From assembly GCF_050320075.1 (NCBI RefSeq), contig NZ_CP190018.1: 64,000 nucleotides of DNA; one strand, written 5' to 3'. Shown here piece by piece: positions 19,985-64,000 of this stretch. Under the pieces are notes generated by a model that was not told the origin of the DNA, made no database searches, and saw only the letters and a list, made by a program, of their open reading frames with translations. The stretch's first letter is position 1, and the number at the start of each line of letters is the position of its first letter. The DNA is from Escherichia coli (GTDB lineage: Bacteria; Pseudomonadota; Gammaproteobacteria; Enterobacterales; Enterobacteriaceae). Position numbers and translations under genes: made by a program.

Positions 19985-20592
19985 GACCTGTAAATCGACC
20001 TCCATATAATGGAACTGTTTATGCAGATTATAAATCATTTTTACCTTCGCTATTAACTGCATATGGCGGATATTGTTCTTATTGTGAGCGGCCGGATAAG
20101 GTTGATGTGGAGCATGTTGTCCCAAAAACGCATGCACCACTTTTGATTACTGATTGGAACAATTTTTTACTGGGTTGCCCTCGCTGTAACCGAGATTTTA
20201 AAAAAAGTAAGAATACTCAACGTATAGGCTATGTTTGGCCAGATGTTGAGAATACATTTAATTTATTGACATACCATCCAGATGGTAGAGTAGAGCCTAA
20301 GCAGGGGCTGTCTGCCGGACTAACTGCGCAGGTACAGGCTACTATTGATTTGGTATGTCTTGATGATGGTAACCAAGTACAAAAAACTTTAAATCTTGGT
20401 AGAAGGAGATATTTTGGACTCGCGAATAAGGCCAAGACTCTTTATCTGAGTAATTTATTGAGTATTGATGAGGTCATGGATATGGCTCAGTTAGGATATT
20501 GGTCGATCTGGTATAATGTGTTTCAAGGTGTACCTGCTGTCCTTTCAGCTTTGGAGAATTCCTATCCTAATACCGCTATAAACCGCCCATGA
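19981..20592 (+). CDS. HNH endonuclease, 203 aa; Septu PtuB-like candidate
   Basis: Zinc-finger HNH pattern C32-x2-C35 ... H45 ... N60 ... C66-x2-C69; translationally coupled to the upstream ATPase. Confidence 0.85.
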   Translation: MRPVNRPPYNGTVYADYKSFLPSLLTAYGGYCSYCERPDKVDVEHVVPKTHAPLLITDWNNFLLGCPRCNRDFKKSKNTQRIGYVWPDVENTFNLLTYHPDGRVEPKQGLSAGLTAQVQATIDLVCLDDGNQVQKTLNLGRRRYFGLANKAKTLYLSNLLSIDEVMDMAQLGYWSIWYNVFQGVPAVLSALENSYPNTAINRP

Positions 20593-32454: not shown

Positions 32455-32883
32455 TTAATCTCCCGTAAGTGGAACTAACAGCACATCGACCTCACTTGAG
32501 GCAATCACTCTTTTCGCCGAGCAGGATGCTCGCGAAAAGAAACTGTGATTGTGATTACCGCAAATCACCAAATCGAAATGATATTTGCGACAAACTTCCA
32601 GAATATGTTCGCTTAACTCACCGTAGGCAATAAACGTCTTGTCAACGGGATACCCCGCATCCTGAATTAACTTATCAAGAAAGCTTTGCGTTTCTTCCTG
32701 CATCACGCTGCGTAAATCTTCAAGCATCGGCGCAGCTAATTGATTGTACATTTCCGGGTCGGAAGCGAGAGTAATTAAACTGATGTGTCCCTTTACTGGC
32801 CTGGCGATAGATACCGCTTTTGCCAGCAGTTGCTGACTTTCCGGTGTAACCGCAACGGCGACAAGAATATTGCTATAGCTCAT
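32455..32883 (-). CDS. uspC: universal stress protein C
   Basis: 142-aa Usp-family ORF. Confidence 0.9.
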   Translation of the reverse strand: MSYSNILVAVAVTPESQQLLAKAVSIARPVKGHISLITLASDPEMYNQLAAPMLEDLRSVMQEETQSFLDKLIQDAGYPVDKTFIAYGELSEHILEVCRKYHFDLVICGNHNHSFFSRASCSAKRVIASSEVDVLLVPLTGD

Positions 32884-51853: not shown

Positions 51854-52609
<756 letters not shown>

Positions 52610-52656
52610 TTTTTACCGTTGCATCATGTCGCCCAATATGATGCTTGCTCGTACCA

Positions 52657-52688
52657 GGCCCCTGCAATTTCAACAGGGGCCTTTTTTT
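52657..52688 (+). terminator. rho-independent terminator after cutC
   Basis: GGCCCCTGCAATTTCAACAGGGGCC hairpin + TTTTTTT. Confidence 0.65.
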
Positions 52689-52994
52689 ATCCCTGAATAG
52701 TATAAAAAATGAACGATTACCGCGATCTGTTGAGCGGGTGACAGTGCACATAGCGTTGTGCTAAAAATTTTTATATATTCATATTAATTATGTAATTTAA
52801 ATTACTAAAACTGACAAATATGTATTCTAAATAACAACTGGGTTATTCCTTAGCAATTAATGATTACATTGTAATAAATCATATTCTTTATCGATTATTT
52901 CAGGCAGTGTTGTGCCGAATTATGCAAGCGGTCAATTCGTTGTATATTTAATTATACAATGATTTCGGTGTTCTGGAATTAATTAGAGGAATCT

Positions 52995-54095
52995 ATGCGA
53001 GGGAAAAAACGCATTGGGTTAATGTTTTTGCTGATAGCGGTTGTGGTTGGTGGCGGCGGGTTATTGCTGGCGCAAAAAGCCTTACATAAAACGTCGGATA
53101 CAGCATTTTGCCTTTCCTGCCACTCGATGAGTAAACCTTTTGAGGAATATCAGGGAACTGTCCACTTTTCGAACCAGAAAGGGATACGTGCGGAATGTGC
53201 CGATTGCCATATTCCAAAGTCAGGGATGGATTATTTATTTGCTAAATTAAAAGCATCTAAAGATATTTATCATGAATTTGTTAGCGGCAAAATAGACAGT
53301 GACGATAAGTTCGAAGCGCATCGTCAGGAAATGGCCGAAACAGTATGGAAAGAATTAAAAGCCACTGACTCTGCAACGTGCCGTAGTTGCCATTCTTTTG
53401 ATGCCATGGATATTGCCTCGCAAAGTGAATCTGCGCAGAAAATGCATAACAAAGCACAAAAGGGCGGCGAAACCTGTATCGATTGTCATAAAGGCATTGC
53501 TCATTTTCCGCCAGAAATAAAAATGGATGACAACGCGGCGCATGAGCTGGAAAGTCAGGCCGCTACTTCAGTGACTAATGGCGTACATATTTATCCTTTC
53601 AAAACTTCTCGCATAGGCGAGCTGGCTACCGTGAATCCTGGTACCGATCTCATCGTCGTTGATGCCAGTGGCAAACAGCCGATCGTTCTGTTGCAGGGTT
53701 ATCAAATGCAGGGCAGTGAAAACACGCTCTACCTGGCGGCAGGTCAACGGCTGGCACTAGCCACATTAAGTGAAGAAGGTATCAAGGCGCTCACGGTAAA
53801 CGGGGAATGGCAGGCTGACGAATACGGCAATCAATGGCGTCAGGCGTCTTTACAGGGTGCGCTTACCGATCCCGCATTAGCGGACCGTAAACCGCTATGG
53901 CAATACGCTGAAAAACTTGACGATACCTATTGCGCTGGTTGCCATGCCCCTATTGCCTCCGACCATTACACCGTCAATGCATGGCCGTCCATTGCCAAAG
54001 GAATGGGGGCGCGAACCAGCATGAGCGAAAACGAACTGGACATTTTGACGCGGTACTTCCAGTACAACGCCAAAGATATTACCGAGAAACAGTGA
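52995..54095 (+). CDS. torY: NapC/NirT-type multihaem c-type cytochrome TorY
   Basis: 366-aa ORF with CxxCH haem-binding motifs (CLSCH, CADCH, CRSCH, CIDCH, CAGCH). Confidence 0.9.
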
Positions 54096-58783: not shown

Positions 58784-59128
58784 TCAGAAAAGAGAAGATT
58801 GCTGTGGAATAGCCGGAACTGCTCCGATCTCTGGAAGCGTTTTACGTAAGTCTTCCCACAGGGTATGTACCAGTTCCGGGGCCTGGGCAATATCTGGCGT
58901 ATGTAAAAAAAGATAAGGCGTAGTGGTCTGATGCCACTGCGCTAATTTTTGTAACCAGACCTGAAATAATTCCCGGTTTTGCGTCATATCATCACTACCG
59001 ATAAAACGGATCAGCGGATTTGTCGCCGTCAGTACAGCATGTACCGGAACTTTAGGTTTTTTTCGTTGAGCGTCGCGAATAGCTTCACTGTGTGGACGTG
59101 CTGCATGAACCGGGCGGCTGTCTAAAAT
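58784..59128 (-). pseudogene. yecE: yecE 3' fragment (C-terminal ~114 codons); 5' portion displaced by an insertion
   Basis: Translation ILDSRPVHAARPHSEAIRDAQ...QQSSLF matches the YecE C terminus; upstream in frame there is a TAG stop and unrelated AT-rich DNA. Confidence 0.7.
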
Positions 59129-59180
59129 CATCAAGGTCTAAATGCACTACATGGGCACCTAAACATATACATGTGATGTT

Positions 59181-59203
59181 GAGGTGTTAGAAAGGGGGCT
59201 GTT
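59181..59203 (-). terminator. hairpin downstream of the 306-aa minus-strand gene
   Basis: AGGGGGCTGTTCAGCCCCT inverted repeat immediately after the stop of 59219..60139. Confidence 0.35.
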
Positions 59204-59218
59204 CAGCCCCTGATAGAC

Positions 59219-60139
59219 TTAGTAATTATCCCTGACAACTTCATCATATCTTTCAATGAAGGTTAGTTGTTTATTACTTCCATTATAACTATCAACCCAT
59301 TTGTCTACAGCTTCATCGAATAGAAATAAAAAATCCGTATAATTTATATACACTACATTATCATAATATTGGGTTGGGTGACCTCTTTTACATACAGCAA
59401 TACTAAGACGTCTTTCTTTACCCTGAGTAACTTTGTGTGAATTAAGATTAGTCATGTGAAGCAATGAGTTCCTTAATTCATATAATTCGTCGGAAGTTAC
59501 TCCAAGTTTTTGTATATCTGAGTATGTATCTAACCAATTTTGAAAGACTCTTCTTTTGTTTCCAAACTCAATATAAGCTATAGTATCAATAAATGACATT
59601 AATAGCTTGAAGCTTGACAAGTAATGTTTTTTGTTAAACAGAAGCTTTATTGGTTCCATATGGTCATCATTAAGAAGTTCCTTAATGTGAAAACCATCAT
59701 CTTTCATATACTTATCAAGATAGTCTGGCAAGTCTTTTACACCTTCAATGTGATAGTTAGGTGTGTGCTTATTCCTTAATTGCTCTGACATTGATAACTG
59801 AATATCATATTGTAATTTGCCTTTAACAACGGGGGTGACTATAGCTAAAGGGTTTTCAGGTGCATTTTGAGCTTCTAATGCTAATTCAAACGGAGCAAAA
59901 GGATTACCAATCCGCAAATTTGCATTATATCTTTCAAGTGTCAATTTGTCATTTTCTAAAACAGAAGGGTGTATCCCATAAAATAAACGACAAGAAGCTA
60001 AGTCAATCTCCAAATTCCGCTTTAAAAAATCTAATTTTTGCGCATCATCGCCATCATGTTCGTGAGGTACTATTCCGGCATGTGTGATATGAACTCCATC
60101 AGGACTAAAGCAAAATATGTTGTAGATAATCTCTTTCAT
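59219..60139 (-). CDS. hypothetical protein, 306 aa, with RNxxxH (HEPN-like) motif; candidate Abi-type RNase (tentative)
   Basis: Long intact ORF in AT-rich DNA at the island edge; motif R223-N-S-L-L-H228 fits the HEPN R-x4-6-H consensus; no other recognisable domain. Confidence 0.65.
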   Translation of the reverse strand: MKEIIYNIFCFSPDGVHITHAGIVPHEHDGDDAQKLDFLKRNLEIDLASCRLFYGIHPSVLENDKLTLERYNANLRIGNPFAPFELALEAQNAPENPLAIVTPVVKGKLQYDIQLSMSEQLRNKHTPNYHIEGVKDLPDYLDKYMKDDGFHIKELLNDDHMEPIKLLFNKKHYLSSFKLLMSFIDTIAYIEFGNKRRVFQNWLDTYSDIQKLGVTSDELYELRNSLLHMTNLNSHKVTQGKERRLSIAVCKRGHPTQYYDNVVYINYTDFLFLFDEAVDKWVDSYNGSNKQLTFIERYDEVVRDNY

Positions 60140-61249
60140 ACCATTCTAACCTTCAGTGAAAATAAAGTTTTAACTATCATTAGATTATGAACAATCACAA
60201 TTGGCCTGTAAATAACAGGGCATAAACAGGTTCGTTTAGCTTGATTTTATCACTATAACTGTCTGATTTAACGGTAACTCACCAAGTATACACACAGTAA
60301 TTACACAATCCTGTTATTATGTAACTTATTGAAATATATAAATAATTTTTACATTCTTTGTTTGGGGTAAGCTGTGTAATGTTAGTCGTCCCTCTCCAGA
60401 CACTATATATAGTGCTATATACAGGACTATATAACGATATATAGATGTTTGGTCACATGGTATAACTATCAAACCACTTAACGATTTCCTACGTGAAAGT
60501 TAGAAAGTGATAGTTATAGTTACCTTGTCAAATCTTCGTAGTCCCTTCTTAAAAAATCGTGAAAGGTAATCTTGTTATCTATACAGAATCTACGTAGATG
60601 CTTCTTAGTGCGCAAAACAGCTATTATGTTAAAAACGCACTGTATACGTATCAGTACTGATTTATAAGGGTTTTGTGTATTGGCTGATAAGAGGCTATAC
60701 AGCACCTTGAGAGCATGTCTTCTAAGTCATTGACATATAAGGTCACAGAAGTTTGTAGCTGTTACAGAGAAAACTGGATAGGACTTCACAGAACTATAAA
60801 ATGTTACAGCTATTGATAGGTGAAATCTTCTTGATAGATGCTTTGAAGTGTGGTGAAGGCTTTTTGAGGTGGGGCTAAACAGATATCATGAAGAAAGTCA
60901 ATAGTTGATTCGGTTTATCGAATAAACCTCATAGATATTTTAAAATTCTGCAAAGGGGGTCACATAGCTGGTGTGACGGGTACTTAGCAGCTACAGACAT
61001 CTATCAGATATTTTTGAAGATTTTTAGAAGGGGAATTTGAAGAGGGGCTACTACGATTTTATAAAAATTTTCAGATTCTGAAAAGTTACTGTACAGAATA
61101 TGTACAGATATCTTTAAAGTATCTGTAAAAACTTTTAAGATAAAAGATAGATATCCCAGAAAGGATATCCGTTTAGAAAACCTATTAAGTATCTCTTAAA
61201 AGAGAGTAAACCTTGTCAAGAGTGATTGCAATAAAAATTTTTATTTCTT
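60140..61249. other. 1.1 kb AT-rich ORF-free region with clustered short repeats and palindromes (divergent control region, origin or ncRNA locus)
   Basis: No ORF above 61 aa; recurring TACAG/GATAG-containing motifs; palindrome GTCACAtagctggTGTGAC at ~60959..60977; CTATATATAG-type repeats at ~60400..60445. Confidence 0.5.
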
Positions 61250-61912
61250 ATGTCAATTGAGTGTATTTTAATCGGGAAACATCATGGGGGTTCTGATTAC
61301 TGGAGAACTCCATTTTTGTTATTTAAGAACTTACACCGTGAATTTATTTTCAGTCTGGATGGTGCTGCAACTAAGCACGATACGTTATTACCCCGCTTTA
61401 CGGATGATATTCACAATCAGTCATGGGATGGTGAACGGGTATTCTGTAACCCACCATACAGCGACACTAAAACATTCCTCGTAAAAGCGTCTGAGGCAGA
61501 TTTATCGGTATTCCTGATACCGTACCGACCCCAAACCATATACTGGCTTAAGCACATCTTCACAAACCCGCTTTGCCATGAAATCCGTATTCTTCATCGT
61601 GCAGTTAAATACCTTCCACCAGCAGGGCATAACAGGCTTACTATTAGGTCGCCGTTTCCAAGTGCAGTCGTTGTTTTTAAAAAAGAACCACGCAGGCATG
61701 AAATTACGCAGATGGTTTGCTGTGCTGATACATTGCTACCGTTAACCATCATTAACAGAGGAGGCTTGAGAGGAAGGCCCACCATTTACCCACCTGAGAC
61801 GCTCGACAGCTTCATAAAACTATACAGGCAAGGCAAACCCATTAAGTGCATTGCAGATGCTCTCAGAATGCCTCTGAGCACGTCATACAGGATTGCTCAA
61901 AGGTTGAGCTAG
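61250..61912 (+). CDS. phage Dam-like DNA N6-adenine methyltransferase with C-terminal HTH-like segment
   Basis: DYWRTPFLLF ... FSLDGAA ... CNPPYSD (motif IV N/DPPY) typical of phage N6-A MTases; C-terminal IKCIADALRMPLSTSYRIAQRL looks helix-turn-helix; start codon uncertain. Confidence 0.6.
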   Translation: MSIECILIGKHHGGSDYWRTPFLLFKNLHREFIFSLDGAATKHDTLLPRFTDDIHNQSWDGERVFCNPPYSDTKTFLVKASEADLSVFLIPYRPQTIYWLKHIFTNPLCHEIRILHRAVKYLPPAGHNRLTIRSPFPSAVVVFKKEPRRHEITQMVCCADTLLPLTIINRGGLRGRPTIYPPETLDSFIKLYRQGKPIKCIADALRMPLSTSYRIAQRLS

Positions 61913-62276
61913 AATTCTCATAAATATGGTCATTTACAAGACAGGTGATTTAGATATTAAGAGGTATCCCTGTGAACAATAAATGACCAATCAGTAATTA
62001 TCCTGTGAAATAATTGTTGCAATTTATAATCACACATGGTATAGTTTCATAGTGGACTGATAAAAAAGTTCATGTCTTGAAGTGGTAACACTTGGGGAGG
62101 TGTCAGATGATTGACGTATATTAACCTCTCATTCATGGTAATACCTCAGCGTTTTAATCATCGTACTGTTTCAGGCATGGACTTCTTTATCAGTCCATCA
62201 ATCCCCCAGATATTTTAATCACACAGGCTAATCGGTTTTATCCGGTTGGCCTTTTCACGTATGAGGTAATTTATGA

Positions 62277-63245
62277 ATGAAAAAAGAAACTAATGCTTTT
62301 ATTATGGTAGATAAACGAGTTGCACAATTCCCTAAAACATTAAAGCCAATTGACCGCTTGGTATATTTCACTATGCTGGATGGTGCTGATTATTACGAAT
62401 CTAAGTTCGGGAGATACGCACCAAGTATTGACTATTTGATGGTTATGTCTGGTGCTACACGTAATACAGTTATTGATTCACTTAAGAGACTTGAGTCACA
62501 CAGACTTATCGAAAAGACCAATGTAAAGGGTCAGCAAAGTATTTTTAAAGTATTCACGTTGGATGAGCGTCCAGAGGTCTTATCAGAACCTACCCTTGAT
62601 GAGCGTCGTAGAGCTAAATTATCAGGTCAACCAGAATCTGACAGTAACCCAACCAAAAATTGGTTACCTACCCAACCAGAATTTGGTTACCTACCTAACC
62701 AGAATTTGGTTACATGTAATACTGAATATAAAGACAAAAATATAAATACTGAAGAAGAAAGACTAAAAGGGAACTTTGAAGAAGAATCTCTTAAGAAGGG
62801 AGCTTCGCTCTGTGATTCACATGAATGTGATATTAAAGAAGATGACTTTCTTTCTTTGGATGAATTAAATGATTTTCTCTCTATGAATGAATCTGGCCTT
62901 GATAGTGAAGCTACTAAAGAGGCTGTTAAAAAGGAAGATAAAATCTCTGATGTGAATATCGATAGTGACCATAAAAACACACAGTGCCCCGCCACTGATG
63001 ATGAGATGGACCCCTTCGATGATTACCTTGATGAAGAGTCAGAGCGTGAAAAAGCCATTAAGAGGGTAGAGAAGAAAAAGAGATTCGAGCTTGCAAGACA
63101 AAAGAACAAAGTATCGGGTTTAGACCCATTCGATGACAGTGACGATGATGACTTTTCTTTCACACCAAGAAAGAAACAAACTCAGGATGACAAGAAGCAA
63201 AAAATTAAACCGAAGATGTATTTTGCTGGTGGAGGTATGCGCTAA
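62277..63245 (+). CDS. winged-helix DNA-binding protein with long acidic low-complexity tail (replication-initiator/regulator-like)
   Basis: N-terminal ~95 aa resemble phage Rep/replisome-organiser winged helix; C-terminal two-thirds D/E/K-rich with a twice-repeated DPFDD motif. Confidence 0.55.
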   Translation: MKKETNAFIMVDKRVAQFPKTLKPIDRLVYFTMLDGADYYESKFGRYAPSIDYLMVMSGATRNTVIDSLKRLESHRLIEKTNVKGQQSIFKVFTLDERPEVLSEPTLDERRRAKLSGQPESDSNPTKNWLPTQPEFGYLPNQNLVTCNTEYKDKNINTEEERLKGNFEEESLKKGASLCDSHECDIKEDDFLSLDELNDFLSMNESGLDSEATKEAVKKEDKISDVNIDSDHKNTQCPATDDEMDPFDDYLDEESEREKAIKRVEKKKRFELARQKNKVSGLDPFDDSDDDDFSFTPRKKQTQDDKKQKIKPKMYFAGGGMR

Positions 63246-63541
63246 TGAAAGAATATCACGGTGAAAAGAGATACAAAGATTACCTGTTAAAGCGTTATAG
63301 CATTTCTCGTGAAGGCCACTTAATGAAGGATACTCACGGGGAAGTTTACCGGATTAGACCGAAGAAAGAAGGGAGGGATTATTTCTTTTACGATGGTGTG
63401 ACAGATTTAAAGATTGATGCTTTGAAGTTTGCGGCGCTGTATCATTATGATATCTGGGACTCAGTCCACCAGCTACGATTAAAAGACGGTGACCCCGGTA
63501 ATCTGAGGGCCACCAATATTATCAAGGGAAAGTGCCGGTAA
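63245..63541 (+). CDS. small HNH-like endonuclease-domain protein (tentative)
   Basis: 98-aa ORF translationally coupled (ATGA overlap) to the upstream gene; VHQLRLKDGDPGNLRATNI resembles the HNH_3 H-x-DG-x-NL-x-T pattern. Confidence 0.4.
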   Translation: MKEYHGEKRYKDYLLKRYSISREGHLMKDTHGEVYRIRPKKEGRDYFFYDGVTDLKIDALKFAALYHYDIWDSVHQLRLKDGDPGNLRATNIIKGKCR

Positions 63542-63799
63542 GTCCACCAGCTATTTATTTATTGAAATCTCTATCTCAACACGAAGAAGTTTAAGTCGAA
63601 TTGTAAGCTTTGTCTTTTTTGTAATGACTCGATTCATAACGCAAAACACCAATAGCACAATAAATACCGCAAAGCCCAACGAGCTAAAACGATGAGATTC
63701 AATAATTGCTGTGAAAAAATCATGCATTAATTTTCCTTTTGCGAAAGGAAACAGCACCTGTATCAGCCCCTATAACCATAATATCATGTAAATGAGATG

Positions 63800-63828
63800 T
63801 TGACAATATGTTAAATAAATGTTATGAT
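63800..63828 (+). promoter_or_regulatory. near-consensus sigma70 promoter
   Basis: TTGACA-N17-TATGAT followed by AAGGAG Shine-Dalgarno and ATG at 63866. Confidence 0.5.
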
Positions 63829-63865
63829 TGTAGTATGAGTAAGAGATTTAAGGAGATTTTTACAA

Positions 63866-64000
63866 TGACTCACACAGTTACGCGCCTTTTGCCAGAGGCA
63901 TTTGAACGACTGGCAGCAATCAAAGCCAAATATCCCGATATGAAGCACACAGCGCTTGTTGGAGAGCTTTTAAAAGAGTCGGTAACCCTGACCCCTTTCG
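63866..64000 (+). CDS. ribbon-helix-helix-like DNA-binding protein, 5' portion only (runs off window end)
   Basis: MTHTVTRLLPEAFERLAAIKAKYPDMKHTALVGELLKE has the beta-strand then helix pattern of RHH/CopG/antitoxin-type proteins; strong promoter and SD upstream. Confidence 0.4.

Follow-up and report, generated by a model that had tools for sequence, protein, structure and literature searches.

A single-gene cassette at the end of a yecE island of Escherichia coli encodes a candidate HEPN-type endoribonuclease

Organization of the locus

A 64,000-nucleotide stretch of Escherichia coli DNA (contig NZ_CP190018.1 of assembly GCF_050320075.1), which we refer to throughout as the window, contains near its right end an open reading frame (ORF) at 59219–60139 that encodes a protein of 306 amino acids from an ATG start on the minus strand, and which RefSeq annotates as a hypothetical protein (WP_000658747.1). 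The E. coli chromosome in the window carries torZ-cmoB-cmoA-yecN and then a truncated yecE, after which G+C content falls from ~0.50 to ~0.31–0.35 at 59.1 kb. The ORF is the first gene within the low-G+C DNA, with its transcription directed at the chromosomal junction, and its product contains the sequence RNSLLH at residues 223–228 (codons 59456–59473, minus strand), which the sequence and the conservation of these residues among relatives together suggest to be the catalytic motif of a HEPN-type RNase. A preliminary description of this DNA had noted the ORF, the position of the motif, a hairpin downstream and the location just inside an inserted element, and all of these are present in the sequence.

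The low-G+C DNA is an island of ~12.2 kb that splits yecE, as is evident in the complete genome NZ_CP123240, in which the locus is identical (L001, 20433–32665). The island begins at position 59131 of the window and extends beyond the window's end. The 3′ fragment of yecE left behind by the insertion (a DUF72 gene; 58784–59131, minus strand) ends at 59131, as identified from the ORF listing and from the RefSeq annotation 'DUF72, missing N-terminus' in L001. Comparison of the two L001 junctions (20425–20431 and 32664–32670) reveals a 7 bp sequence, AAAATCA, that is common to the left and right ends and lies at 59124–59130 in the window; crossover by the island's large serine recombinase, a 507-residue protein encoded at the far end of the island (PHROG integrase, E = 1.9e-79), probably takes place there. 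Other island genes encode a Dam-like methyltransferase, a replication-initiator-like protein, a 710-residue tape-measure protein and a baseplate-annotated (baseplate/endolysin-like) protein; genes for capsid and terminase are absent. Islands built in this way are found in several strains and also elsewhere in the chromosome, and the element may be satellite-like or may be a defective prophage that has been conserved. The literature knows yecE as an attB of Stx phages and does not describe the ~12-kb island in that connection; a preprint on serine recombinases as markers of defence concerns a different element.

A variable cargo slot at the island end

Alignment with two 'empty' sister islands that lack the gene (L015 and L018) delimits the segment to which it belongs. 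The outermost ~19 bp of the island (59131–59149) are common to the empty islands and probably constitute a recombinase half-site. Next to them, a single-gene cassette of ~1.05 kb (59150–60204, minus strand) stands in place of ~75 bp, and past the cassette the homology resumes in a non-coding region of ~1 kb.

The gene forms a cassette with a promoter-like site and a hairpin of its own. The hairpin, which is terminator-like, lies 8 nt past the stop codon (59195–59210, minus strand) and has a GC-rich stem of 6 bp (GGGGCU-GAAC-AGCCCC, followed by CUUUCU) with a predicted folding energy of -11.1 kcal/mol (z = -2.26); it is not among the matches of a stricter T-run terminator scan. At the other end, ~45 nt upstream of the ATG, a promoter-like site (TTTACA-17-CATAAT; 60184–60212, minus strand) is recognized by its consensus match only (10/12), and its -35 hexamer is in conserved island sequence while its -10 hexamer is in the cassette.

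Twelve complete E. coli genomes carry the cassette at 100% identity and a thirteenth has a 75% partial copy, giving a total of 13 among 5,426; island-related sequence, scored as a match to window positions 60300–63500, is present in 452 of the 5,426. In the O157:H7 strain Rafaela_II (L002) the same cassette adjoins another type of island backbone, with similarity to the window stopping at position 61093. The slot is empty in some of the sister islands and has other occupants elsewhere: a 277-residue ORF with no PADLOC match in L003 (9526–10359), a 182-residue small serine recombinase/invertase in L016 (1474–2022), and, in L017 (1993–2517), an 'AP2/ERF' protein of 174 residues that is recognized by a homing-endonuclease model of PADLOC (E = 2.6e-8). 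Because the slot is empty or otherwise filled in sister islands, and because the cassette is found on another backbone, we conclude that the gene is cargo that can be dispensed with and exchanged, and that it lies outside the core machinery of the island. It had been supposed previously to be junction-proximal accessory cargo, and the sister-island comparison bears this out by placing it in a variable slot of a mobile island.

Several further observations were made in the course of these comparisons. A distant DNA match to the gene (67% over ~300 nt) occurs at a different site in two E. coli isolates from chicken (NZ_CP158147, ~1181188–1181480) and presumably represents a second, divergent member of the family in E. 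coli. The ~1 kb at 60205–61250 contains no credible ORF, is kept in sister islands without the cargo gene, and is the most widely matched part of the island in E. coli genomes; six of the 12 sampled 'spread' rows, the weaker half, match only ~60322–61097, where there is no annotated feature. Five of the window's seven matches to the word YTRTACAG are at 60579–61827, short palindromes are also abundant in this region, and an Rfam scan of 58900–64000 gave nothing credible. The region could be an origin with iterons, a regulatory region or an unannotated RNA. Within the chromosomal part of the window, which has a G+C content of ~0.52, there is a second low-G+C dip (0.35–0.37) at 52500–53250, upstream of torY/torZ.

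A broad and unnamed protein family

The protein had been described as an orphan, a designation that is refuted in all but one sense, namely that no library has a name for it. A search of 5.8 billion proteins yielded relatives in 59 clusters at 90% identity, and when 1.84 billion cluster representatives were scanned exhaustively with HMMER, relatives with E ≤ 1e-3 came from at least 237 clusters (50% identity), with E < 1e-30 for 77 of these. The family is spread over many bacterial phyla. Named sources include Klebsiella, Pectobacterium, Pantoea, Enterobacter, Citrobacter, Raoultella, Erwinia, Stenotrophomonas, Colwellia and Methylobacter, together with cyanobacterial, planctomycete and acidobacterial metagenome-assembled genomes, and structural searches with Foldseek add Vibrio, Acinetobacter, Bradyrhizobium, Pseudomonas, Burkholderia and Opitutus. 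Among the 144 relatives with a complete C-terminal domain (C-domain), 100 have an N-terminal domain (N-domain) of the same type as the query, 25 consist of the C-domain alone (~180 aa), and 19 have an N-terminus that is of another type or too divergent to classify.

Apart from the motif, no recognisable enzymatic domain was reported for the protein initially, and our library searches agree: there is no match to NCBIfam or PADLOC (PADLOC-DB 2.0.0, 2023) at E ≤ 1 or to Pfam at E ≤ 10, and precomputed tables list no Pfam domain for its relatives. Comparison with PHROGs gave a weak match only, to phrog_12390 (function not known; E = 0.007). The best 120 matches of a profile search with the C-domain are unannotated family members only, and WP_000658747 was not found in the searchable literature. 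The family is thus uncharacterised and unnamed, and Pfam, NCBIfam and PADLOC-DB 2.0.0 do not detect it.

Conservation of the RNxxxH motif

Taken from the single sequence, the motif is weak evidence, because shuffling this protein produces RNxxxH in 3.6% of cases and the looser Rx4-6H in 81%; indeed, there is a second Rx4-6H match at R51, and this one is not conserved. Across the diverse C-domains of the family, R223 is kept in 145/145 and H228 in 143/145, which places the motif above chance, and RNxxxH is the best-conserved feature that the family has. Two further residues, K178 (144/145) and D185 (143/145), both in the second helix (H2) of the structural model described below, match R223 and H228 in their conservation. 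In each of the twelve commonest motif variants, the residue at 224 is N or H.

The published signature of HEPN domains combines a four-helix up-down bundle with a polar residue (N, D or H) after the arginine of the motif (PMC3710099). The Rx4-6H spacing and the polar residue following the arginine, which together serve as a criterion for HEPN proteins (PMC3710099), are both found in this family.

Predicted structure

An AlphaFold2 (AF2) model built from a 36-sequence alignment is confident, with a predicted local distance difference test (pLDDT) score of 89.1 and a predicted template modelling (pTM) score of 0.83. It comprises an alpha/beta domain at residues 1–105 (59825–60139, minus strand), a poorly conserved linker (106–137), and a helical domain that spans residues 138–303 in the model and that we delimit as the HEPN-like C-domain at 138–306 (59222–59728, minus strand). 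The mean frequency of the commonest residue is 0.57 in the C-domain, 0.43 in the N-domain and 0.29 in the linker. No fold is assigned to the N-domain, which the model and its conservation suggest as a possible sensor or regulatory domain; its conserved polar residues, as compiled from 94 full-length relatives, are E3, N7, H26, D32, D46 (100%), R76 and T102.

In the C-domain the predicted helices are H1 (152–169), H2 (173–192), a helical insert (198–212), H3 (216–227), H4 (267–283) and an extra helix (290–303), with a small beta insert at 244–266. R223 to H228 lies where the third core helix ends and the next loop begins. HEPN domains often have an acidic residue in helix 2 and frequently carry inserts between helices 2 and 3, and a beta hairpin directly after the motif is also present in Csx1 (PMC3710099). 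The modelled topology matches that description, with the motif at the end of H3 and an insert between H2 and H3; the acidic D185 is in H2 and may be the counterpart of the helix 2 residue near the active site.

The preliminary description had suggested Foldseek as a check on the HEPN assignment, and the outcome was divided. Against AFDB50, the search recovered the family and then models of ~160–180 aa, several of them named 'Apea-like HEPN' (E from 5e-7 to 2e-6, target TM scores of 0.70–0.75), to which the C-domain is thereby linked; against the PDB there was nothing (best E = 0.26). The protein and two profiles were also searched against PDB sequences, with no relevant match. UniProt names a full-length relative (31% identity) 'Apea-like HEPN' and a C-domain relative (44% identity) 'HEPN AbiU2-like', labels that our scans do not reproduce, and gives the identical E. 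coli protein the name 'ApeA N-terminal domain-containing protein', an unverified third-party name that no search reproduced. The independent fold evidence is weak, yet it lies in the HEPN direction.

Genomic contexts of homologues

In Enterobacterales the gene is always on mobile DNA, whether islands, conjugative plasmids or predicted prophages. A homologue with 72% identity is next to Shedu (PADLOC SduA, E = 9.5e-204) in a further large-serine-recombinase island, and a Stenotrophomonas homologue (L005) is located between an nSTAND1-Mrr protein and Shedu. Tyrosine integrases, a relaxase, insertion sequence (IS) elements, HEPN_AbiV, AAA_13, CbtA and Mrr are present at other homologue loci; five plasmids carry homologues, and on one of these, a Pseudomonas plasmid, the neighbour is an 'Abi family protein'. 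The presence of defence genes nearby, like the location in a variable slot, is a qualitative association and not a statistical enrichment.

Directly upstream of the Stenotrophomonas homologue there is a gene (L005, 7222–7878) for a 218-residue protein with a DDRNRLVHP motif of its own and no PADLOC match; this defence island thus probably encodes another HEPN-like protein, one that is unrelated to the homologue.

A tblastn search of GenBank phages gave no match, and IMG/VR has homologues on twelve viral contigs. In two predicted phage types (L035/L039, 5971–6918; L038, 5986–6939) a full-length homologue of 36–40% identity is situated within the head module and is co-oriented with it, the gene order being either terminase, portal, head-morphogenesis, homologue, protease and major head, or terminase, portal, homologue, a 277-residue ORF and protease. 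Mu-like Pseudomonas phages keep accessory (anti-CRISPR) genes in their head-gene region, and the head-module location suggests a role in phage-phage or phage-host conflict.

The immediate neighbours of the gene in eight unrelated loci share no similarity and no partner is conserved among them, nor is a similar ORF found near the gene in the window. Since these neighbours are unrelated, the gene appears to work without a dedicated partner. A possible partner beyond the window had been entertained earlier, a suggestion not borne out by a cassette of one gene that has no conserved neighbour across the eight loci.

Relationships to known HEPN systems

Of the characterized HEPN proteins, ApeA invites the closest comparison; it is reportedly one of the single-gene defences of Gao et al. 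2020. ApeA is a protein of ~580–600 aa with three domains, a doughnut-forming tRNA anticodon nuclease whose activator is 5′-phosphorylated deoxydinucleotides and which assembles as a decamer with a dinucleotide pocket (bioRxiv 10.64898/2026.01.26.701840). Like ApeA, the query is a single protein in which a non-nuclease N-terminal part is joined to a C-terminal HEPN or HEPN-like domain with an R-N-x-x-x-H motif (RNLIVH in Ec2ApeA and RNKITH in Ec1ApeA); both have extra insertions after H3 of the HEPN core, both are carried as morons in prophages and islands, and ApeA is mentioned in the UniProt names—all unverified—of some relatives and of the identical E. coli protein. Unlike ApeA, which has helical N and Mid domains and a split HEPN domain, the query has 306 residues and an alpha/beta N-domain of ~105 residues.

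For reference, we took Ec1ApeA and Ec2ApeA in full length from E. coli genomes, where the truncated sequences in the preprint's supplement served to locate them. The PADLOC ApeA model PDLC02157 recognizes both of these controls (E = 0 for Ec1ApeA and 1.3e-12 for Ec2ApeA), and neither this model nor the NCBIfam model 'HEPN family anti-phage protein ApeA' matches the query at E ≤ 1. An hhalign comparison of the full-length protein with ApeA found nothing (probability 0.1%). Membership in the ApeA family was rejected on these grounds: there is no match to the PADLOC model, hhalign aligns the motif only, and the size and N-domain differ. The resemblance to ApeA is one of working logic and motif, and not of family membership.

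More distant comparisons can be made with three other groups. The HepT/MntA (HEPN-MNT) toxin likewise has a helical-bundle nuclease domain (predicted, in the case of the query) with an Rx4H motif; unlike the type II/VII HEPN-MNT systems, the query gene has no adjacent MNT or other antitoxin gene, either at the cassette or across the eight loci, and unlike the minimal toxin its HEPN-like domain is ~165 aa long, with a beta insert, an extra C-terminal helix and an N-terminal fusion. The lactococcal Abi HEPN proteins (AbiD/AbiF, which correspond to Abi_2, as well as AbiU2, AbiJ and AbiV) are similar to the query in being encoded by single genes, in having an RNxxxH-type motif and in residing on mobile DNA (PMC3710099), and one C-domain relative has the 'HEPN AbiU2-like' label mentioned above, which is not reproduced. 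They differ in that neither the query nor any of 74 relatives has a Pfam match to an Abi HEPN family, and the relationship is at most at the level of the superfamily. Finally, the anticodon nucleases PrrC and RloC and the mRNA RNases RnlA and LsoA are phage-triggered defence RNases of the HEPN type (PMC3710099) and offer a mechanistic model for the possible action of the query. Unlike the query, these are fused to an ABC ATPase, or are partnered by an antitoxin or a restriction-modification system, and no sequence or profile similarity to either pair was detected.

Discussion

The family keeps a HEPN-type motif, and islands, plasmids and prophages carry its gene as a cassette of one gene; for these reasons it is a plausible candidate for an anti-phage or conflict effector. 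The interpretation that we favour, and consider reasonably probable, is that the protein is a self-contained HEPN endoribonuclease that is gated by its N-domain until an infection cue appears, and that then aborts the infection or disables a competing element. The C-domain would act as a metal-independent endoribonuclease in which R223 and H228 are the predicted key catalytic residues and N224 is the polar residue that assists them; K178 and D185 of H2 would be likely contributors to the active site, which by analogy with other HEPN enzymes is probably shared across a dimer. The alpha/beta N-domain would hold the nuclease off until its signal arrives, and the ensuing RNA cleavage would stop translation and so abort the infection, or else disable a competing element. 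The most likely role is therefore worded broadly, as abortive-infection-type defence or mobile-element competition through RNA cleavage. The proposal of a HEPN/Abi-type effector in the preliminary description survives in part: the motif is conserved and is placed as it is in HEPN domains, and defence genes are among the neighbours; on the other hand no HEPN or Abi profile matches the protein, and it is not an ApeA.

Several results weigh against an assignment as a defensive HEPN nuclease. When a profile of the C-domain was compared by hhalign with a reference alignment of 33 ApeA HEPN sequences, only 13 columns around the motif were aligned (LWELRNSLLHMTN versus IYRTRNLIVHTGK), with a probability of 0.4%. 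A Pfam scan of the 74 relatives (36 full-length proteins and 38 diverse C-domains) gave no HEPN or Abi match. Pfam negatives for divergent HEPN proteins carry little weight, because the same scan, run as a positive control, gives no HEPN_Apea or ApeA_NTD match for the genuine Ec1ApeA (L022, 2651–4456); the Abi models (Abi_2, that is AbiD/AbiF, and others) were scanned without a positive control. The structural matches, weak as they are, lack specificity because four-helix bundles are a common fold. In addition, two standalone C-domain genes are in housekeeping-looking operons without signs of mobile elements, and such loci fit poorly with a constitutively toxic nuclease or with a purely defensive role, and warn against taking all members of the family for defence toxins.

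A variant in which the protein is an active HEPN RNase and serves the mobile element itself seems to us unlikely. It might be a toxin for addiction or stabilisation, or a weapon against competing elements through interference with a helper phage by a satellite-like island, superinfection exclusion by a prophage or host takeover. The invariable association with mobile DNA in Enterobacterales speaks for such a role, as do the co-oriented homologues in the head modules of two phage lineages, which may be expressed with the late genes, and the similarity of the island, with its tape-measure, baseplate-like and replication-initiator genes, to a satellite or defective phage. A classic two-gene addiction module is made unlikely by the lack of an antitoxin-like partner, and in the loci of the Stenotrophomonas and Klebsiella types the gene is clustered with systems of host defence. 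Service to the element and defence of the host are in any case not mutually exclusive, and they are not separable by sequence.

We regard it as distinctly improbable that the C-domain is a helical bundle with no nuclease activity, in which a ligand or nucleic acid is bound through the conserved R, H, K and D, as happens in catalytically inactive HEPN-like domains or other four-helix domains, and that the protein is a regulator or adaptor. This would account for the similarity to HEPN structures being below the usual significance and of a kind common to the four-helix bundles of hemerythrin, DinB and HPt proteins, for the failure of profile comparisons to link the protein to any HEPN family, and for the standalone C-domains in housekeeping-like contexts; it is at odds with the near-invariance of the motif, which is typically lost in inactive HEPN domains (PMC3710099).

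That the gene is instead a life-cycle factor of the island, acting in excision, regulation or replication beside the attachment site, is suggested by its position ~20 bp from the island end and next to the ~1-kb conserved non-coding region, and is very improbable, being largely refuted by the pattern of presence and absence: most related islands lack the gene and are otherwise intact, unrelated genes fill the slot in others, and plasmids, phages and chromosomal islands that are unrelated, and whose integrases differ, also carry homologues.

Returning to the gated HEPN endoribonuclease, a more far-reaching form of the proposal, which we hold as no better than tentative and somewhat doubtful, is that the protein is the founding member of an unnamed, phylogenetically broad family of single-protein immune systems. 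Its N-domain, a new domain of ~105 residues in which D46 and the other polar residues listed above are conserved, would sense an infection signal and release a divergent HEPN RNase, and the module would be traded among satellite-like islands, plasmids and the head-gene slot of temperate phages, serving as a weapon when phages and satellites are in conflict.

HEPN RNases are well established as abortive-infection and defence cargo of mobile elements, and the result for this reason would extend our understanding of them rather than change it. If confirmed, it would add an unnamed and fairly widespread family, ranging from Enterobacterales to cyanobacteria, Planctomycetota and Acidobacteria, to the HEPN single-gene immune effectors, and the small N-domain would provide a compact model for the control of a HEPN nuclease by a sensor. 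For E. coli itself, the attachment-site end of the yecE serine-recombinase islands, to which ~8% of complete genomes have related sequence, is a cargo slot worth mining.

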